Shown here piece by piece: positions 3,779 to 53,947 of a stretch of 64,000 nt of DNA. A program made the translations under genes and the position numbers. How positions within the stretch are numbered: the stretch's first letter is position 1; each line of letters opens with the position of its first letter. This stretch comes from Alphaproteobacteria bacterium (lineage in GTDB: Bacteria > Pseudomonadota > Alphaproteobacteria > Micavibrionales > Micavibrionaceae). The notes beneath the pieces are model-generated. The model worked only from the letters and a program-made list of their open reading frames with translations, ran no database searches and was not told the origin of the DNA. The stretch covers positions 5,476-69,475 of the forward strand of contig JALEGH010000038.1 in the NCBI GenBank assembly GCA_022763065.1, written 5' to 3'.

Positions 3779-4711
3779 ATGAGCGTAGAAATTGAACAGA
3801 GCATAAACCTGCAAAAGCAGGCCAACGTTAAAACGAGCGCCAAAACGGGGGCAAAAACCGGCATAAAATCCGGAGCAAAAGAGGCAGCGCGCGATGTCCG
3901 GGCGGTAAAAACCGCACTCAATAAGCTGGGATTTTATCACCCCGTAAAGGGGCGGGGCGTGACAGGAGATATAGGGCCAGATTTTTTAAAAGCCGTGCAA
4001 AATTTTCAACGCGCGCATTTCATTCCCGTGCGGAAGAGTTTGGTTCCTGGTGATATAACGATGGAGCGTTTAAACGCGGAGCTGGATAACCCCGTCAATT
4101 TTCAGCTTTTCAAAAGCAAATATATCTGGCGCACAGTAGGGGATGGAAATGTCCGCCACACACATTCCGCGCGGGAGGGACGGACTTTCTCATGGGACAC
4201 TCCACCCGAAGGCGGCCATCCGGGCGAAGATTTTGGCTGCCGTTGCTGGGCAGAGCCCATCGTGCCCTTCACACCCAAAGGGTTGAATAATTCACAAACC
4301 GACCTCTTTGATAAAAGCATTCCATTAGACGCGATTGAAAGTTCCGCCAGTCCGTTGGACTTTCTGGGCGGTGGTGTTGCGCTTCTTCAGGGAGGAAAAA
4401 TACGAATTGGTCAAAGTACTTTCGATATATTAAAAAATATTTTTAAGGGAAATATAAAATTAACAGGAGCGCAAACAAAAAATTTGGTACGTTTTACTAA
4501 GAAAGTACCGGCGAATGCTAAACAATCTATCGAAGTTGTTCAGTCCAAGAGAGGTAATATAACGTTCAAGGCTACTTCTCCCGGGAAAATATTTGGATCA
4601 AGGGCTGTCTATGAAAAAACGGTTGATGCAAAAGGGAATACGATAAAATATATAAAAACAACATACGATTCTAAAGGGAAGATTATTCATATAAAAAACA
4701 AATTGAAGTAG
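3779..4711 (+). CDS. polymorphic-toxin-like protein with a disordered N-terminus, a PG_binding_1-like domain, a phage MuF (SPP1 gp7) core motif, a conserved linker and a variable C-terminal domain
   Basis: aa 38-100 (VRAVKTALNKLGFY...AVQNFQRAHF...PGDITMERL) resemble a peptidoglycan-binding domain. aa 115-160 (YIWRTVGDGNVRHTHSAREGRTFSWDTPPEGGHPGEDFGCRCWAEP) match the MuF signature D-x-x-VR-x-x-H...G...P...CRC. The DNA for aa 140-200 is repeated downstream. The C-terminal ~110 aa are A+T-rich and unique. There is no Sec signal peptide. Confidence 0.75.
   Translation: MSVEIEQSINLQKQANVKTSAKTGAKTGIKSGAKEAARDVRAVKTALNKLGFYHPVKGRGVTGDIGPDFLKAVQNFQRAHFIPVRKSLVPGDITMERLNAELDNPVNFQLFKSKYIWRTVGDGNVRHTHSAREGRTFSWDTPPEGGHPGEDFGCRCWAEPIVPFTPKGLNNSQTDLFDKSIPLDAIESSASPLDFLGGGVALLQGGKIRIGQSTFDILKNIFKGNIKLTGAQTKNLVRFTKKVPANAKQSIEVVQSKRGNITFKATSPGKIFGSRAVYEKTVDAKGNTIKYIKTTYDSKGKIIHIKNKLK
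4196..4378 (+). repeat. homology arm copy A (coding, aa 140-200 of the effector)
   Basis: gacactccacccgaaggcggccatccgggcgaagatttt...gacgcgattgaa recurs at 6101-6246. Its 3' part (4301-4378) recurs at 7003-7080. Confidence 0.85.
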
Positions 4712-4715
4712 GAAA

Positions 4716-5075
4716 ATGACGATGCTTAAAGATGAAAAACGAAAAAAGATGCTTGGAAATTTTATTAATTTTGAAGGTGATTTGCAGCAGATTTCGAAAC
4801 AAATATTAGAGCATGGATGGGATTATGAAGGGGATCCTGTCATCATTACAAAAGAAAATGTTAGAAATGTTTTGCAAAATTACATTGAAGGTAAAATAAC
4901 GTCTGAAGATGTTCAGAAATGGGCTGATTTTTTGGAAGTGCGTGAAGATGTTGATTATTTTGAGCATGACGAAGATGTTCTATCTCAAATTATTCATGAG
5001 TTGGCAAATCCTGATATCGAGGGCGTGTTGTCTTTAGATAGAGCGAAGAATGTATTGAAAAGTAAAACGATCTGA
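4716..5075 (+). CDS. candidate cognate immunity protein (small acidic cytoplasmic protein)
   Basis: 119 aa. It starts 5 nt after the effector stop with AGGAAA upstream, is acidic, and has no signal peptide or TM segment. The assignment is from position only. Confidence 0.5.
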   Translation: MTMLKDEKRKKMLGNFINFEGDLQQISKQILEHGWDYEGDPVIITKENVRNVLQNYIEGKITSEDVQKWADFLEVREDVDYFEHDEDVLSQIIHELANPDIEGVLSLDRAKNVLKSKTI

Positions 5076-5091
5076 GGAAAAAGATTAAAAG

Positions 5092-5292
5092 ATGAATAAT
5101 ATAATACACAAAAAAGGTAACACGGTACGTGCATCAATAGAGTTTGAAAAAGATATAGGATACTACTTGTATATTTTTGATCCAAATTCAAAAGAGATCA
5201 CTCATGATTTTATCGAAGATACATTAGAAAATGCCAAGCAAAAAGCAAAAGAAGATTTTGGATTAGAGATTGAAGAATGGATTGAAAATTAA
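5092..5292 (+). CDS. small acidic hypothetical protein (possible second or orphan immunity gene)
   Basis: 66-aa ORF in the same orientation as its neighbours, A+T-rich like them. No motif recognised. Confidence 0.35.
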   Translation: MNNIIHKKGNTVRASIEFEKDIGYYLYIFDPNSKEITHDFIEDTLENAKQKAKEDFGLEIEEWIEN

Positions 5293-5399
5293 AACAGTTC
5301 TTTTGATATAGTGGTGTTGCCATTGTTCAGGGCGGGCGCGTCCTTATCGGTTCATTTGCTTCAGGCACCAGCAGCAAGTTAATTTTTCAACAAACCCGC

Positions 5400-5765
5400 G
5401 TGATAACAGGACGCGCAGCCGCTTTATTGACCAGCCGTTTCCGCAGTACGAAGTGGCTTGATGATACGCCGAGGCGTCAAATTCAGCGTAAGTTTATTCA
5501 TGCTAGAGCTTTAGGTGTTAAAGGCAATCAAAATAATAAAAATTTAAAGAAATTCAGACAAGCGCTCAAAGACCATGTAAAATCCAAAGATACTATTGTG
5601 ATTAAGGGGAGTTATCATAGACAGCCTACGACACACTATTATAACACAAAGACAAAAATTAATGTCATGAAAGATTCTGAAGGTAAGCTACGGTCTGCTT
5701 GGGAATTAACAGATGGGCAAGTAGAAAATATTTTAAGGAGTGGAAATTTAGGAGGCAGTAAATGA
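5400..5765 (+). CDS. orphan colicin-D-like tRNase toxin C-terminal module (no delivery domain)
   Basis: AALLTSRFRSTKW...RKFIHA...VIKGSYHRQPTTHYYNTKTKINVMKDSEGKLRSAWEL fits my recollection of the colicin D nuclease domain (K-x-x-H, G-[TS]-Y-[RH], HYYN-x-x-T, S-x-W). The ORF starts at a GTG. In-frame homology to the linker of cassette 3 extends upstream to a stop at 5304-5306. Confidence 0.6.
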   Translation: MITGRAAALLTSRFRSTKWLDDTPRRQIQRKFIHARALGVKGNQNNKNLKKFRQALKDHVKSKDTIVIKGSYHRQPTTHYYNTKTKINVMKDSEGKLRSAWELTDGQVENILRSGNLGGSK

Positions 5766-6088
5766 TAGATGACCCACACGATTATATTCCTTTAATTGAA
5801 GGTTTTTTAGAAAAAAAAATACCACCTAAAGATTTCCAACTAAAATTTTTTGAAAAAATTGGAACAGATAGATACTTGTATAAAAATAACGAAGACTATT
5901 TTGAACTTATAGACAGCCTTTGCTACTACGTCGATGCTTATGTGGACGAAGACGTTTTTACGCGTATAGATGGCCGATTATTTGATATAGAAGGTGAGCC
6001 GGTTGAGCCAGATGAACATGATCTGGACGAAGACCAGTTGCGTGAAGTTGTCACAAAAATATATAACGAAATTAAAGCATTAAAATAA
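5762..6088 (+). CDS. colicin-D-immunity-like (ImmD family) protein
   Basis: 108 aa. The N-terminal LIEGFLEKKIPPKDFQLKFF and the acidic middle are typical of ImmD-like immunity proteins. Its ATG overlaps the toxin stop (ATGA). It is paralogous to 6735..7001. Confidence 0.6.
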   Translation: MIDDPHDYIPLIEGFLEKKIPPKDFQLKFFEKIGTDRYLYKNNEDYFELIDSLCYYVDAYVDEDVFTRIDGRLFDIEGEPVEPDEHDLDEDQLREVVTKIYNEIKALK

Positions 6089-6098
6089 TTTTCCCCGT

Positions 6099-6246
6099 GA
6101 GACACTCCACCCGAAGGCGGCCATCCGGGCGAAGATTTCGGCTGTCGTTGTTGGGCGGAGCCTATCGTTCCCTTCACACCCAAAGGGTTGAATGTTTCAC
6201 AAACCGATCTTTTTGATAAAAGCACTCCACTAGACGCGATTGAACA
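6099..6246 (+). repeat. homology arm copy B
   Basis: Near-identical by eye to 4196-4343, encoding DTPPEGGHPGEDFGCRCWAEPIVPFTPKGLNVSQTDLFDKSTPLDAIE. It begins directly after the stop of the preceding immunity gene. Confidence 0.85.
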
Positions 6247-6721
6247 GGCAGTGAGTCCATTGGATGTGATTGGAGGAAGCATTACGATTATTCGGGGTGG
6301 CGCTGTTCTCACTGGTCAATATATTGTTGGTAATGGCGGTAAGCTTGTTTAAAAACAAGCTTCTCGTTTCACTGACCAAACAGCCGCACTTCTTACCAGC
6401 CGTTTCCGAGACACAAAATGGATTGATAAAGTACCTAAAAAGAGACTAAACAAAAAATTTGATAAACACGCCGGAATTTTTAATATAAAAGGAAACCGGA
6501 ACAACAAAACTCTTGGAGAATTTACAAAGGCTATTGAGAGGCATGTTAAATCGCCAGACACGATAGTGATCAAAGGAACATACCGCCGACAGCCCGCAAC
6601 GCATTACTATAATCCTAAAACAGGAATTAATCTGATGCGCGATGGTCAAGGAAATTTCTGGTCAGCGTGGAAATTGGGACAAGAACAAGCAAAAAATATA
6701 TTAAAAAGAGGAAGTTTATAA
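6101..6721 (+). pseudogene. silent orphan cassette: homology arm, linker, in-frame TAA, then a colicin-D-like toxin domain
   Basis: There is no start codon, since a TGA sits at 6098-6100 immediately upstream in frame. An in-frame TAA lies at 6350-6352. After it the frame reads KQASRFTDQTAALLTSRFRDTKWIDKVPKKRLNKKFDKHAGIFNIKGN...VIKGTYRRQPATHYYNPKTGINLMRDGQGNFWSAWKL, which is homologous to 5400..5765. The terminal stop is at 6719-6721. Confidence 0.7.
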
Positions 6722-6734
6722 TAAGGGGAACGAA

Positions 6735-7001
6735 ATGGATTTACGCGGCTACGATATATTGATTGAAAGCTTTTTGGAAAAAAAGATTACAGTTGAGGAG
6801 TTTGAAAGAACCTATTTGGATAAGTTTGTAGAGGAAGATATACTGGGTGATGATCTTTATCAGCCCCTTCAATGGCTTTTTTCTGAAGTGGATGAATACA
6901 CCTCGCCAGAGTTTTATCCTTTGGAAGAAGGCGATGTTGATGAAGCGCAACTTCGTAAAACTGCGGCAGAAATTCTGGAACAAATCCGCGCGTTGAAGTA
7001 A
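6735..7001 (+). CDS. colicin-D-immunity-like (ImmD family) protein
   Basis: 88 aa, with LIESFLEKKITVEEFERTYLDKF and a C-terminal ...EILEQIRALK. Paralog of 5762..6088. AAGGGGAA lies upstream of the ATG. Confidence 0.6.
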   Translation: MDLRGYDILIESFLEKKITVEEFERTYLDKFVEEDILGDDLYQPLQWLFSEVDEYTSPEFYPLEEGDVDEAQLRKTAAEILEQIRALK

Positions 7002-7002
7002 C

Positions 7003-7094
7003 TCTCTTTTTGATGAAGACATTCCACTAGATGCGATTGAAAGTTCTGCCAGTCCGTTGGACTTTCTGGGCGGCGGTGTTACTTTTCTCTCTTA
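7003..7094 (+). repeat. homology arm copy C, a truncated remnant at the right island border
   Basis: ctctttttgatgaagacattccactagatgcgattgaaagttctgccagtccgttggactttctgggcggcggtgtt matches 4301-4378. It reads LFDEDIPLDAIESSASPLDFLGGGVTFLS then a stop, with no toxin domain following. Confidence 0.8.
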
Positions 7095-44246: not shown

Positions 44247-44636
44247 CTAATCCATATCATCTTTTGGCGCGTCCTCATAGAGGACAGCATCAAAGGGGTT
44301 CGGCTCTCCATTTGCGCGGTAGACATAAGAAAGAATTTCAGCTACCGCCATGAAGGCTTCACCGGGGATGGGGCTTTCCAGTTCAATCTTAGCCAGAATT
44401 TCTGCTAAATCCGCGTCGGAGCGAACCTTGATATCGTTATCATAGGCCAGTTGCAGGATTTGCTCGGCAATTTTTCCCCGCCCGGCAGCCGAAATAACCG
44501 GAATATCGCCCTTTTCGCTTCCGTCTTTGAGTGCAACGGCGGTCAGGCGATCTGGTTTTTCCTTTATATTTAAAGGCTTTAGGTCGTTTTTGTCACCTTT
44601 TTTGAAGCCGTCATCAAACTCATCGCTCATTGGCAT
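44247..44636 (-). CDS. FhlB-domain protein (small FlhB C-terminal-like, YlqH type)
   Basis: ...AVALKDGSEKGDIPVISAAGRGKIAEQILQLAYDNDIKVRSDADLAEIL...PIPGEAFMAVAEILSYVY matches the FlhB/EscU cytoplasmic-domain pattern. The likely start is MPMSDEF at 44636. Confidence 0.7.
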   Translation of the reverse strand: MPMSDEFDDGFKKGDKNDLKPLNIKEKPDRLTAVALKDGSEKGDIPVISAAGRGKIAEQILQLAYDNDIKVRSDADLAEILAKIELESPIPGEAFMAVAEILSYVYRANGEPNPFDAVLYEDAPKDDMD

Positions 44637-44704
44637 GGTTCCTGCAGTTTTTACCTTGGAAATACGGTTTTTACACGTTTTGACATGAGCCAAAGGGTAA
44701 CGAA

Positions 44705-45606: not shown

Positions 45607-45918
45607 ATGGTTGATAAAATAGTGAACCCCGCCGCGATTAACGCTTACGCCAATACATCAAAGGCCGCCAATGTGGCGGGCTTGAACGCACCGCAAAAAG
45701 GGGAGAGCTTTGGCGATATTCTTAAAAGCACAGCGATGAGAACGCTGGACACTTTGCGCGGTGGAGAGGTTGCTTCGGCCAAGGCCGTATCGGGTGAGGC
45801 ATCATTGCCTGAGGTCGTACAAGCCATCACGGCAGCGGAAGTGACGCTTCAAACTGTCGTAGCCGTGCGTGACCGTTTGGTTGGTGCGTATCAGGAAATC
45901 ATGCGCATGCCGGTTTAG
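45607..45918 (+). CDS. fliE: hook-basal body complex protein FliE
   Basis: The C-terminal ...AEVTLQTVVAVRDRLVGAYQEIMRMPV. The ATG at 45607 (MVDKIV) is preferred. The ORF track starts at 45547. Confidence 0.85.
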   Translation: MVDKIVNPAAINAYANTSKAANVAGLNAPQKGESFGDILKSTAMRTLDTLRGGEVASAKAVSGEASLPEVVQAITAAEVTLQTVVAVRDRLVGAYQEIMRMPV

Positions 45919-46433
45919 GGCGCTTTCTCTTCCATATCATTATATGGCCAGTCTTTGGGATTTTCGTGAGACAGGAGGATTTCAAGGATTTTTTTGCCTG
46001 TGGCTTGTTGCAAACGTTTGCGTTCAAAAAGAATCGTATCCTCATCGTCGCTGGGTAATGGAATATGGGTTATTTTTCGTCTTTTTTCGCTTGGAAATGG
46101 TGATTCAATATCAAACCGAATTCCTTTAGCTTCTTGATAATCCTGAATCGAAAGTACAGCCAAAGGATTTTCAAAATAATTAGAAAAAGTGCTTTGGTAA
46201 ATGCTCCAGCCAATTTTTTCACAAAATTCATAGTTATCCAGAATTTCGGAGAATGTTAATTCGGGTAGGTTTTTGTGAGTATAAATTAAACGATTTTTTC
46301 GCCAATAATGGGGTTCCTGTTCAATTTGCAAAACAGGCTCCCCATCATAATATTACAAAGAGAGAATCAGCGTCTCTTTGCCGCTCAATTCATATCCGGG
46401 TTGTTGCTCAATCAATTCTGTAATGGTCCCCAT
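45915..46433 (-). pseudogene. nonsense-disrupted paralog of the 46904..47401 immunity-like gene
   Basis: From the ATG at 46433 it reads MGTITELIEQQPGYELSGKETLILSL, then a TAA at 46355..46353 where the intact paralog has Gln (SLQYYDG), then YYDGEPVLQIEQEPHYWRK... The termini are conserved and the middle is divergent. Confidence 0.75.
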
Positions 46434-46870
46434 TTTTCCTTGATTTCTTTGCTCTCTAACTCAAATAGGTGTCCCAGAACACGTTTGCCGATTTGGTAGC
46501 ATAGCTTTTCATCGGAGTGCCATTCAACGTCGTTTGGGAGAGGTATTGTATCAATTAATTGACGTTGGCGAGTTGGATCGTATTCTTCTTCATCTTGGCA
46601 TATTGCAGAGAAGTTTGTTTCATCCAAAATGTATATAAGAGAAGAGTTTTGAAATTTACTTTTGAATCGTTTTAATAGTAAAAAAAGCCAAAAGCCAATA
46701 CCAAAAATAAATTCACATATTTCATCTTCTGCATCGCCTAAACTATTAATGTTACTACTACTGAGTGGACAAGCTCTCTTAAAATTTTCAGCCTCAATAA
46801 TAAGTGATACTTCATCATCTTTTTTTGAAGATGAATTGTAAGCATCCTTTGTGGTGGTTTTTTTATTTCT
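46412..46870 (-). pseudogene. start-less, diverged third paralog of the immunity-like family
   Basis: A 152-codon open frame with no ATG/GTG/TTG before the TTG at 46627. The C-terminal ...IDTIPLPNDVEWHSDEKLCYQIGKRVLGHLFELESKEIKEKW aligns with ...ITHIPLPSDDKDTILHESNRLLHATGKKVLEILLSHENPKDW of 46904..47401. It shows the same 22-nt overlap with the next start as seen at the effector/immunity junction. Confidence 0.5.
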
Positions 46871-46903
46871 TTAGGTCTTCCCATTCATTCCTCGGTTTCC
46901 CGG

Positions 46904-47401
46904 CTAGGCATTGTTGTACGGCCAATCTTTAGGATTTTCGTGAGATAGGAGGATTTCAAGGACTTTTTTGCCGGTAGCATGAAGCAGGCGGTTACTCTCG
47001 TGCAGGATGGTGTCTTTATCATCGCTGGGGAGAGGAATATGGGTTATTTTGCGTCTTTTTTCGCTTGGAAATGGTCGTTCAGCGTCAAATCGAATGCCTT
47101 TTTCTTGTTCATAATCTTGAATTGAGAGTAAGTTCAGTTGATTGGTGAAATAAGGGATAGTAATGCCTAGGTAAATGCTCCATCCAATATCCCAGCAAAA
47201 CTGATAATCATCTAAAGTATGAGAAAAAGTTTTTTCAGGAAAGGCCCGATGAGTGACAAAGAGGCGGTGCTTTCGCCAATAATGGGGTTCCTGTTCAATT
47301 TGTAAAACAGGCTCCCCATCATAATATTGCAGAGACAAAAGAAGCATTTCTTTACCGCTATAATCTAGAGTATTTTGTTCTAATCTCTCAAAGGTCCCCA
47401 T
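46904..47401 (-). CDS. candidate immunity protein (intact copy of a three-member tandem family)
   Basis: The ATG at 47401 (MGTFERLEQ...) overlaps the stop of the upstream effector by 22 nt. 165 aa, cytoplasmic. There are two decayed paralogs downstream. Confidence 0.55.
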   Translation of the reverse strand: MGTFERLEQNTLDYSGKEMLLLSLQYYDGEPVLQIEQEPHYWRKHRLFVTHRAFPEKTFSHTLDDYQFCWDIGWSIYLGITIPYFTNQLNLLSIQDYEQEKGIRFDAERPFPSEKRRKITHIPLPSDDKDTILHESNRLLHATGKKVLEILLSHENPKDWPYNNA

Positions 47402-48003
47402 TGATCCTCCGGTTTTCCTGCTCGGCAATTGCCGTAACGGTTAGAAGCTGATGCATGACAGATAGCACCAGCTCTTTTGCCTCGAGTATTTGTTGTTTCA
47501 TTGCACCGTTTTGTTTCACTTTCATAAATAGCATCACAATCAGGGCCTTGATTGTCAAGCTCTTTGTTCTTGTTTTGTGCTCCATTTTTGTGGCGGTCTT
47601 CTATCCATTTTTGCATGGACATCGCTGTGATCCCGGCAAGGGGCAAAAGGCGTGCGCCCAAGGCAGTTGCGGCGGCGGCACCGGCACCACCACCGGCCAT
47701 TTTTATATTTTCTTCTTCCTTTCGCTCTCTTTCTTTCTCCTTTTCTTTGACTTTTTTGTTCAATGTGCGTTCCGTCTCACCACCCGGATTCATAAATCCA
47801 TCGGGTTTGAGCTTTTCTTTCCGCTGGAAGCCCCATATGGCATCGTCCAGCTCCCGATCGATGTAGCCATTGTTAATCTCGTCATTATAACGGCCAATGG
47901 TTTTGAATTTTTTCTTTGTTCGGATGACGTCATCCGGGTCATTTTCCATGTTGTTGCCGACGGATTTGGAAATAGGTTTGAATAGATCATCAAAAAAGCT
48001 CAT
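47380..48003 (-). CDS. PG_binding-like-domain protein with a Gly/Ala-rich hydrophobic segment and a 4-Cys C-terminal module (candidate toxin/effector)
   Basis: It starts at the ATG at 48003 (MSFFDDLF...). aa 25-82 (DVIRTKKKFKTIGRYNDEINNGYIDRELDDAIWGFQRKEKLKPDGFMNPGGETERTL) align with aa 39-99 of the island-1 effector. After a KE-rich linker comes MAGGGAGAAAATALGARLLPLAGITAM, then C-x10-C-x14-C-x10-C. The 5' 119 codons of the ORF-track entry are antisense to fliQ and are rejected. Confidence 0.65.
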   Translation of the reverse strand: MSFFDDLFKPISKSVGNNMENDPDDVIRTKKKFKTIGRYNDEINNGYIDRELDDAIWGFQRKEKLKPDGFMNPGGETERTLNKKVKEKEKERERKEEENIKMAGGGAGAAAATALGARLLPLAGITAMSMQKWIEDRHKNGAQNKNKELDNQGPDCDAIYESETKRCNETTNTRGKRAGAICHASASNRYGNCRAGKPEDQWGPLRD

Positions 48004-48043: not shown

Positions 48044-48071
48044 AAAAAAACCGCCCTGATGAAGGCGGTTT
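48044..48071 (-). terminator. terminator-like leader hairpin plus T7 run between the promoter and the island-2 effector start
   Basis: The minus strand reads AAACCGCCttcatcagGGCGGTTTTTTT. The 3' half (ATCAGGG..GCGGTTTTTTT) resembles the island-1 leader. A second small hairpin, AAATGCGtccGCATTT, lies just upstream. Confidence 0.5.
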
Positions 48072-48109: not shown

Positions 48110-48138
48110 AATATATTCCTAAAATTCGCTTTTGTCAA
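48110..48138 (-). promoter_or_regulatory. consensus sigma-70 promoter (TTGACA-N17-TATATT) of the island-2 effector
   Basis: The minus strand has TTGACA (48138..48133), a 17-nt spacer and TATATT (48115..48110), within an AGGAATATATTCATATT box (compare AGGATTATATTCCTATT at 3671-3687). Confidence 0.55.
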
Positions 48139-48187: not shown

Positions 48188-48454
48188 ATGAACCAGAACG
48201 AGATCATTGATATTGCCCGTGAAGCTATCCTTCTGATCATCCAAATCGGTATGCCGGTGATGGTTGTGGGGCTTGTGGTCGGGGTGGCGATTGCGCTGGT
48301 GCAGGCGTTGACGCAGGTGCAGGAAATTACGCTCGTTTTCGTACCCAAAATCCTTTCCATCTTTCTGGCGATTTTTATTTTTCTGCCCGGTTTTGCGGCG
48401 ATTATGATTTCCTTTATGGATTCAATCGCCGATAAAATAATTGGTATCGGGTAA
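48188..48454 (+). CDS. fliQ: flagellar export apparatus protein FliQ
   Basis: 88 aa from the ATG at 48188 (MNQNEIIDIAREAI...), with two TM segments typical of FliQ. Confidence 0.9.
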   Translation: MNQNEIIDIAREAILLIIQIGMPVMVVGLVVGVAIALVQALTQVQEITLVFVPKILSIFLAIFIFLPGFAAIMISFMDSIADKIIGIG

Positions 48455-52984: not shown

Positions 52985-53947
52985 GTGAAACAAGTAGAGA
53001 TACATATCCTTAAAGAAAAATTATTCAATTTTTTGATGCAATATTTTGATGAGAAAGCTGTGCAGGATTGTGTGGATGTTATCTTATATGCGGAACTCTG
53101 CAATAAAACCGGGCAGGGTTTGTTGAAGCTTTTAGGAACGGAACCTTTGCAGGGCATAAAACCGGAAAAATCTGTTGAGATTTTTGAACGTACAAAACTA
53201 TCAGCTCTCATTTCAGGCAATAAAAATCCCAGCTTTCATATTGCTCAAACGGCAATGCGACTTTGTATTGATAAAGCCAAAGAATATGGGTTTGGTATTG
53301 TTGGTGCGAACGGAATTTTTAGTAGTACAGGAGCGCTAGGGTTTTATGCAGAGAAGGCCGCACAGGAAGGTCTAATAGCCTATGCTTGCGCTCGTTCGCC
53401 GGGGGCAACTGCTCCTTTTGGTTTAAGTGCGCCTTTATTTGGTACAAACCCTTTTTCATGGGCTTTTCCCACTTTGGAGGAACCTGTTGTCTTTGACATG
53501 GCGACTTCGGCCATTACATTTTATGAACTGGTTTTGGCAAAAATGGCGGGGAAAAAGATTCCTGAAGATGTCGCTATCGACCGCGAGGGAGAAATAACGA
53601 CTGACCCAAGTGAGGCTATGAAGGGAGGGATTTTGCCTTTTGATAAGGGGTATAAAGGGTCGGCACTTTCTATGATGGTAGAAACATTAAGCGGCCCTTT
53701 GGTCGGTGCATCATATTGTGATTATGAAACCTTTGACAAAGATTGGGGGTTTTTAGTTTTTGCTTTCGATCCAGAATTGCTGATAGATGCACAAAAATTC
53801 AGGAAAGAGGCGGATAATCTTGTGACGATCATCCGTCAAAATGGAGGCGTTGTCCCGGGGGATAATAGTCGTCAGTATGAAAAAGCTGCCCGACATTCGG
53901 GAAATATCACGGTTGAGAAATCTGCAGCTGAGTTATTGGGATTATAA
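52985..53947 (+). CDS. Ldh_2-family (malate/L-lactate dehydrogenase-like) oxidoreductase
   Basis: ...LPFDKGYKGSALSMMVETLSGPLVGA resembles the Ldh_2 family core. GTG start. Confidence 0.55.
   Translation: MKQVEIHILKEKLFNFLMQYFDEKAVQDCVDVILYAELCNKTGQGLLKLLGTEPLQGIKPEKSVEIFERTKLSALISGNKNPSFHIAQTAMRLCIDKAKEYGFGIVGANGIFSSTGALGFYAEKAAQEGLIAYACARSPGATAPFGLSAPLFGTNPFSWAFPTLEEPVVFDMATSAITFYELVLAKMAGKKIPEDVAIDREGEITTDPSEAMKGGILPFDKGYKGSALSMMVETLSGPLVGASYCDYETFDKDWGFLVFAFDPELLIDAQKFRKEADNLVTIIRQNGGVVPGDNSRQYEKAARHSGNITVEKSAAELLGL

Follow-up and report, generated by a model that had tools for sequence, protein, structure and literature searches.

What is a block of opposite-strand genes doing inside a flagellar export operon? 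The locus that raises this question lies on contig JALEGH010000038.1 of a metagenome-assembled genome (MAG) labelled 'Alphaproteobacteria bacterium', of which we analyzed 64,000 nucleotides (positions 5,476 to 69,475; hereafter, the window). The window carries a flagellar cluster (flhF, flhA, motB-like genes, fliP, flgB, flgC, fliE, fliQ, fliR and flhB), and between fliE and fliQ a 2.2-kb block runs on the minus strand, comprising a gene for a 207-aa toxin candidate followed by three paralogous partner genes (NCBI locus tags MRY79_04265–04275 cover the insert). An earlier description made from the letters of the window alone, here called the sequence-only reading, had taken this block for an effector/immunity module. 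Comparative evidence supports that view: the C-terminal domain of the candidate recurs as a cassette, partner genes are linked to it, and partners occur in arrays and as an orphan. We conclude from these comparisons that the block is probably a polymorphic toxin/immunity module.

Organization of the insert and the 207-aa protein

The left flank of the insert is fliE (45607..45918, plus strand), which is 70% identical to the gene annotated as FliE by Pfam in a related locus, L009. The right flank is fliQ (48188..48454, plus strand), which heads fliQ-fliR-flhB and is now separated from flgB-flgC-fliE. The ORF coordinates bear out the layout given by the sequence-only reading, namely a minus-strand block between these two genes, a 207-aa ORF (47380..48003), a 165-aa gene (46904..47401) whose ATG overlaps the stop of the effector gene by exactly 22 nt, and a last copy that converges on fliE and overlaps its stop by 4 nt (45915..45918). 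The G+C content of the paralog array is 36–41%, compared to 47–49% in the flanks.

The 207-aa protein (NCBI: hypothetical protein MRY79_04275) is built from a predicted peptidoglycan (PG)-binding N-domain, an Ala/Gly-rich linker and a four-cysteine C-domain. The N-domain (residues 1–99, core ~20–85; 47707..48003, minus strand) matches the N-domain hidden Markov model (HMM) at E=1.8e-45. Against Pfam PG_binding_1 (PF01471) the protein scores 21.9 bits, below the cut-off of 23, and its homologs score 25–48 bits. The AlphaFold2 model of the domain resembles the PG-binding domains of CtpB, SleB and phiKZ gp144 (Foldseek probability 0.99–1.0), with a match on 6tci (probability 1.0, TM 0.75). By profile and model the N-domain is probably of the PG-binding type, and PG binding is predicted. 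No signal peptide was seen on inspection of the protein, whose N-terminus is acidic (MSFFDDLFKPISKS...) and has no hydrophobic core. Residues ~103–135 are Ala/Gly-rich with a central Arg, borderline hydrophobic (Kyte–Doolittle 19-residue maximum ~1.4) and modeled at low confidence.

The C-domain is a four-cysteine helical hairpin (residues 156–194; 47422..47538, minus strand). Its cysteines, C156, C167, C182 and C193 (C-x10-C-x14-C-x10-C), are invariant across homologs on the PG-binding scaffold, and AlphaFold2 places antiparallel helices at residues 156–174 and 176–194 (pLDDT 85–90). This spacing sets C167 opposite C182 and C156 opposite C193, which could allow two cross-helix disulfides as in stapled hairpins. 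The domain has no match in Pfam, NCBIfam, PHROGs, PADLOC, PDB or BFVD. A spanin or holin reading of a membrane-proximal hairpin was dropped, as the partner is not a lipoprotein and no lysis genes are adjacent.

A mobile four-cysteine domain and its two partner families

We scanned loci from genomes and metagenomes with three HMMs, for the N-domain, the C-domain and the partner family. The locus searches were driven by the toxin alignment; no stretch of the 165-aa family is conserved enough to search with. The PG-binding scaffold carries the four-cysteine domain in Micavibrio aeruginosavorus HCB189, whose homolog is 227 aa long (L015 5998..6681), as well as in MAGs of Micavibrio (L011, L012) and of other alphaproteobacteria (L010) and on several metagenome contigs. 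The four-cysteine domain also occurs without the N-domain: on the phage-like contig L032, within the upstream ORF of L033 and L034, and in a 90-aa protein with a hydrophobic N-terminus (P0041).

In one further locus, L035, the four-cysteine domain directly follows an orphan Rhs-core tail, '...WLYVESDPIGLAGGSYSTYAYAFSNPLSNIDQTG' (DPIGL...). This tail corresponds to positions 45–75 of the 76 in NCBIfam TIGR03696 (E=1e-5; 26 bits, against a cut-off of 32.5), and its score falls below the cut-off because the rest of the core is missing, as is the case in orphan Rhs cassettes. The Rhs core was seen only in this relative; the window protein itself has no YD/Rhs repeats or core in Pfam and NCBIfam. 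The N-domain, for its part, is found by its HMM in proteins ending in the four-cysteine domain, in MuF plus an unknown domain, in Tlde1, in DUF6973, in coiled coils and in other unknown domains.

The genes beside the four-cysteine domain fall into two families. The 165-aa family lies 3′ of it in nine loci (the window, L001, L008, L010, L012, L015, L032, L036 and L037) and, by HMM scans, none of the 12 loci with other C-termini on their N-domain proteins contains it. In five loci (L005, L011, L024, L033 and L035) the partner is instead a small cytosolic protein resembling DUF6968 (PF22302). The L011 partner is DUF6968-like by Pfam (E=1.7e-11); BLASTP similarity between it and the L005 partner is insignificant, and the DUF6968-like subgroups are joined by hhalign at 98.9% probability. 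The 165-aa and DUF6968-like families are unrelated (hhalign 0.1%, no Pfam match of the 165-aa protein), and a literature search found no description of DUF6968. A partner of one family or the other flanks ~14 of the ~15 distinct four-cysteine loci with readable flanks. It is with the C-domain, and not with the PG-binding N-domain, that the partner varies. Taken together, the four-cysteine hairpin behaves as a mobile cassette, the predicted activity of which is toxic.

Tandem partner paralogs are present in at least five loci (the window, L008, L015, L024 and L036). The junctions between genes are themselves conserved. In L008, too, genes overlap by 22 nt, at two junctions around caATGGCCACC. 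Many partner proteins begin with 'MAT...', and the toxins and many partners end in '...QWPP...' because the start of the next gene (caATGGCCACC, 'MAT...') is embedded there. The conserved junction may reflect translational coupling, cassette recombination or both. In L009 (6500..6538), a lone partner gene keeps a vestigial embedded start, though nothing follows it.

The three partner paralogs

Copy 1 (46904..47401, minus strand) is the intact 165-aa immunity candidate that overlaps the toxin gene. Copy 3 (45915..46433, minus strand) is 70% identical to it (tblastn E=6e-74) and full length except for a TAA at codon 27 (46353..46355); NCBI annotates only a 138-aa restart from a TTG (45915..46331, MRY79_04265). 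The sequence-only reading had placed this stop correctly (46355..46353), but the intact copy reads CAA at codon 27 and not CAG, and hence the lesion in copy 3 is a single C>T change.

Copy 2 (46412..46884, minus strand), the divergent middle paralog, is 28–31% identical to the other copies over its whole length, and an HMM made solely from homologs outside the window finds it at E=2.7e-20. It is left unannotated by NCBI, whose tags (04265, 04270 and 04275) step by five. The frame had been described as start-less. The 152 codons, the homology and the 22-nt stop overlap all hold, but the gene has a start: GAGGAA is followed by an ATG at 46884, in a different frame from the open frame (46412..46870), from which it is separated by one frameshift in an A7 run (46858..46864). 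Adding one A to this run produces a 157-aa ORF. The overlap between the copy 2 stop and the copy 3 ATG (46433) is also 22 nt, the two junctions in the array reading cAATGGGGACC and aAATGGGGACC.

We estimated selection between copies 1 and 3 by the Nei–Gojobori method, which gave dN 0.22, dS ~1.4 and dN/dS 0.156. These values imply an old duplication, with both copies having been functional proteins for nearly all of that time, and such purifying selection means that the nonsense codon is either very recent or an error. The 152-codon open frame of copy 2 likewise persists in AT-rich DNA despite its one homopolymer frameshift, pointing again to a recent loss of function, to phase variation or to an error in the consensus. 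Two copies are thus broken, as had been noted, but to call them decayed overstates the case, given one lesion each and the dN/dS ratio.

The earlier picture of conserved ends and a divergent middle does not hold for copies 1 and 3, which are instead a mosaic of near-identical and divergent blocks. Blocks around codons 21–50, 100–130 and 145–165 have 82–88% DNA identity, and the first ~20 codons are divergent. One 57-nt stretch contains a single mismatch; of 10,000 shuffles, 4 gave a perfect run as long as its 32 nt. The mosaic points to patchy gene conversion, which would accompany any birth-and-death process.

When 1.84 billion cluster representatives were searched exhaustively with HMMER, 23 members of the 165-aa family were identified, ranging in length from 140 to 172 aa. 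This overturned the orphan status suggested by a word-index search, which had returned only the window's own two proteins. The family is absent from Pfam, NCBIfam, PHROGs and PADLOC. An AlphaFold model of the 165-aa protein from 24 sequences is an alpha/beta fold (pLDDT 86, pTM 0.82); Foldseek comparison of this model with PDB and BFVD found nothing above TM 0.26, and a profile search of PDB sequences with the family was empty. A check for flagellar homology, named in advance by the sequence-only reading, revealed none (Pfam, NCBIfam; no structural neighbor). An Eag-type or type III secretion system (T3SS) chaperone role was also considered and dropped on the basis of the missing structural match, the downstream position of the gene, the arrays and the surviving orphan copy.

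Copy 1 has a pI of 5.7 and the family is acidic (pI ~5), with no transmembrane segment, hydrophobic segment or signal, so the partner proteins are expected to be cytosolic. An acidic, cytosolic partner would suit an intracellular toxin–antitoxin or abortive-infection-type pair, in which a small membrane-associated toxin and a cytosolic antitoxin operate with no export. The tight two-gene order with translational coupling, the borderline hydrophobic segment of the 207-aa protein and the occurrence on phage-like contigs are all consistent with such a pair. However, there is no PADLOC family match, a PG-binding domain and four probable disulfide cysteines are sensible only outside the cytoplasm, and the copy behind an Rhs core tail suggests an exported protein. 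Divergent partner arrays and orphan partners are, moreover, typical of immunity between cells and not of antitoxins. We consider this alternative very unlikely.

The fliE–fliQ junction in relatives

The sequence-only reading had proposed comparing this junction among relatives. In the Terasakiella MAG (L019) it is empty, with fliE and fliQ co-directional and 18 nt apart. The proteins of L009 are closely similar to those of the window (FlhB 79%, FliR 79%, FlgC 82% and FliQ 88% identity), and its fliE–fliQ junction holds an opposite-strand insert consisting of a single 164-aa partner gene (P0012) and no toxin gene. The contiguity of fliE and fliQ in Terasakiella and the lack of the 207-aa gene in L009 imply that the insert is accessory and not part of the core flagellar operon, and its presence in both the window and L009 implies that the insertion predates the split of these two lineages and is not strain-specific.

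We also weighed the possibility that the genes are a lineage-specific flagellar accessory, the PG-binding protein anchoring or remodeling the wall around the basal body with the aid of dedicated chaperones. The position within the flagellar export operon is common to the window and L009, and genes with the N-domain lie near flhA/flhF (island 1 of the window, described below), near fliP (L019) and 4 kb from motAB (L006). Most homologous modules, by contrast, adjoin serA, leuS, pheT or an acyl-CoA-ligase-like gene far from any flagellar genes, and their placement beside unrelated housekeeping genes argues against a flagellar function. L009 is entirely without the PG-binding gene; the junction is empty in Terasakiella; neither flagellar families nor T3SS chaperones show similarity; and the insert is on the opposite strand, is low in G+C and has two of its three paralogs broken. 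A flagellar role is thus highly improbable.

The PG-binding N-domain in other settings

The sequence-only reading had assigned the 207-aa protein the same N-domain as a protein of a second island in the window (3779..4711). This is correct at the level of the domain (N-domain HMM E=3e-5), but BLAST finds nothing between the two proteins. The island-1 protein (310 aa) joins a PG_binding_1 domain (30.9 bits) to a Phage_Mu_F tail (38.6 bits; both Pfam), and is followed by a 119-aa ORF (4716..5075). The 207-aa protein itself has no PF04233 (Phage_Mu_F) match in Pfam.

The rest of island 1, which lies between flhF and flhA (3779..7080), is an orphan-cassette array. First comes a Colicin_D domain standing alone (5400..5765), overlapped by a Colicin_immun gene (5762..6088). 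The second cassette (~6098..6730) starts with a 147-nt MuF-tail repeat, 91% identical to 4193..4339, and continues with an in-frame stop and a second colicin-D-like domain before a further Colicin_immun gene (6735..7001); a third fragment of the repeat occupies 7006..7080. In total the island has two orphan colicin-D cassettes and two ImmD genes.

In the Terasakiella MAG (L019 6001..8035), the N-domain is joined to a domain resembling Tlde1 (Pfam E=1.5e-6, narrowly below the cut-off). Tlde1 and the MuF tail of island 1 belong to known antibacterial modules, and their union with this N-domain supports the toxin/immunity reading. The L019 gene is split by a frameshift near 6195 and is followed by a 159-aa hydrophobic ORF, presumably a membrane protein. 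It forms the fliP-proximal end of a ~5.8-kb non-flagellar stretch (SDR, LysR, speD, speE) that sits between a TPR protein gene and fliP of the flagellar cluster. A 437-aa PG_binding_1 protein in L006 was set aside as a generic CHAP-like wall enzyme outside this N-domain family.

Three loci have a phage character. In L036 (809..4228), the PG-binding/four-cysteine gene comes directly after a 632-aa tail-tubular-B-like gene (phrog_376, E=5e-155). In L007 (284..6854), an N-domain protein is encoded among major head, tail-tubular-A-like and tail-tubular-B-like genes, forming a podovirus-like module. In L032, terminase, endolysin-like and tail-spike genes lie beside a C-domain/partner pair. The presence of a bacterial YgjV-like gene next to the L036 module suggests that this module is a remnant. 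In T7-like phages, such positions of the structural module are occupied by genes for internal virion proteins.

These contexts, together with the MuF head-morphogenesis motif of the island-1 protein, raise the possibility that the insert is a phage structural relic. On this view the PG-binding protein would belong inside the virion, assisting DNA through the wall as a pilot or ejection protein, and the 165-aa genes would encode its chaperones, assembly factors or superinfection-exclusion proteins, all of them stranded in the flagellar cluster after prophage decay. However, no phage gene is found near the insert in the window or near most of the other module loci, an IMG/VR scan returned no relative, and neither protein has a PHROGs family. 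Immunity also accounts better than assembly for the divergent partners in tandem, for the orphan partner retained under selection and for the copy linked to Rhs. We regard a phage relic as unlikely, and note that it is partly compatible with the toxin/immunity reading, as phage-packaged toxins are a recognized class. By analogy with such toxins, a phage particle, with the protein in the role of a pilot or ejection protein, is our best lead for a delivery route, and packaging is conjectural.

Proposed mechanism

We hypothesize that flgB-flgC-fliE-fliQ-fliR-flhB was ancestrally one contiguous operon, into which the toxin/immunity module inserted on the opposite strand. The C-terminal half of the 207-aa protein would be toxic to cells without the partner, and the paralogs would be cognate immunity proteins that bind the toxin directly in the cytoplasm, with copy 1 translationally coupled to the toxin via the conserved 22-nt overlap. 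The additional paralogs, one very divergent (copy 2) and one 70% identical (copy 3), may broaden protection against variant toxins of neighbors. Each would have been disabled very recently by one mutation, unless the MAG consensus is wrong. The PG-binding domain may tether or guide the protein at the wall. The cytosolic nature of both partner families suggests that the toxin is most likely neutralized, and probably acts, in the cytoplasm. There it could be a small non-enzymatic binder or inhibitor, its hydrophobic segment aiding membrane passage; alternatively, it could perturb membranes as a membrane-active peptide.

Several observations weigh against this reading. The Rhs link consists of one short 2.5-kb contig with a sub-threshold match, and the partner gene of L011 is convergent with the toxin gene and not downstream of it. 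The putative warhead is only ~45 residues long and has neither a catalytic signature nor a relative in Pfam, PDB or BFVD. Both lesions in the array may be artefacts of the MAG consensus. The four invariant cysteines suggest a folded state outside the cytoplasm, in conflict with partners that carry no export signals; by analogy, this conflict could be reconciled with colicin–immunity complexes as the model. Lastly, Pfam and NCBIfam scans of the 207-aa protein found PG_binding_1 only, and no recognized secretion or trafficking determinant (two-partner secretion [TPS], PAAR/VgrG, LXG/WXG or MuF). The missing export determinant lowers confidence in the delivery route, not in what the 207-aa protein resembles.

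A bolder extension concerns delivery. The signal-less PG-binding N-domain might mark alphaproteobacterial toxins, including those of predatory Micavibrio, that are delivered via particles resembling phages or gene transfer agents or via the flagellar type III apparatus, with the hairpin as a new, minimal, non-enzymatic class of warhead. We think this conjecture quite unlikely as a whole. In its flagellar-export form, the insertions beside flhF/flhA, beside fliQ (both in the window) and beside fliP (Terasakiella) would reflect co-regulation or use of the apparatus. Micavibrio ARL-13 is reported to have type I and II secretion systems and no type III or IV (PMC3189940).

Comparison with known systems

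Polymorphic toxin systems combine C-terminal toxin cassettes with adjacent immunity genes, including the orphan cassettes of Rhs-CT/RhsI and CdiA-CT/CdiI, and PGB1 is among their known accessory domains (Zhang, Aravind et al. 2012, PMC3482391). The module resembles them in having a shared N-terminal part and an exchangeable C-domain that also occurs on an Rhs-core tail, and in having an immunity-like gene immediately downstream that co-varies with the C-domain and comes from two alternative families. Tandem and orphan immunity-like genes and a base composition foreign to the flanks are further similarities. Unlike these systems, it has a C-domain and a 165-aa partner that belong to no curated family, and its scaffold is a PG-binding domain only, with no signal peptide, repeats, PAAR, VgrG, LXG or TPS. 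At 207 aa with a predicted warhead of ~45 aa, the candidate toxin differs in size as well.

Among polymorphic toxins, phage heads are the predicted vehicle of the MuF type (Zhang et al. 2012). The island-1 protein combines an N-domain of the same type with a MuF motif, and orphan colicin-D cassettes and ImmD genes share its island; homologs of the 207-aa protein occur in podovirus-like structural modules, and the immunity-like proteins are cytosolic, all of which are likenesses to that type. The 207-aa protein differs in having no MuF domain and no flanking phage genes.

Orphan and arrayed immunity genes also accompany contact-dependent weapons such as the type VI secretion system (T6SS). The module is similar to these arrays in its divergent tandem paralogs and in the retention by L009 of an immunity-type gene without a toxin. 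It differs in that no T6SS or other apparatus is linked to it and that two of the three copies are freshly lesioned.

A position beside flagellar export genes has a possible parallel in Pectobacterium. The Carocin S1/S3 bacteriocins are reported to exit via the flagellar type III apparatus (PMC8672553). The module similarly places a candidate antibacterial protein and its immunity partner beside flagellar export genes, the link here being positional only; it differs in having no sequence relationship to the carocins and in that most homologous modules lie away from flagellar genes.

These comparisons define two uncurated families, a four-cysteine hairpin that is a candidate toxin domain and a ~160-aa partner without a structural neighbor. 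As both occur in the cultured predator M. aeruginosavorus HCB189, the toxin/immunity prediction is directly testable. The locus also indicates that a flagellar export operon tolerates being split by an opposite-strand candidate weapon cassette, an arrangement that persists across related lineages. The PG-binding scaffold, carrying no known export signal, provides a lead to a delivery route uncatalogued for polymorphic toxins. A non-enzymatic warhead of ~45 residues would, if borne out, be unusually small for an interbacterial toxin.

Leader and neighboring genes

Upstream of the toxin gene is a promoter-like site on the minus strand, TTGACA-17-TATATT (48110..48138), with 11 of 12 matches. The motif block ACTTGACAAAA...TTTAGGA.TATATTC is also found upstream of the lone partner gene in L009. 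Between the promoter-like site and the toxin ATG lies a terminator-like element on the minus strand (48048..48071), a G+C-rich hairpin with a 10-bp stem followed by TTTTTTT, which is not kept in L009. This hairpin could attenuate toxin expression or could be a leftover element boundary. An Rfam scan of the leader gave no credible match and no credible riboswitch (Phe_leader, 23.6 bits against a gathering score of 55).

Two other features of gene content were noted in the window. An Ldh_2-family dehydrogenase gene (52985..53947) lies between a hybrid histidine kinase gene and recA and has no match in the otherwise syntenic L009, marking a further small indel between the two lineages. Upstream of flgB, the match of a 148-aa ORF (44247..44693, minus strand) to FlhB is confined to the C-terminal part of that protein (Bac_export_2 profile positions 262–335), and this stand-alone FlhB-C-like gene is kept in the Terasakiella locus.

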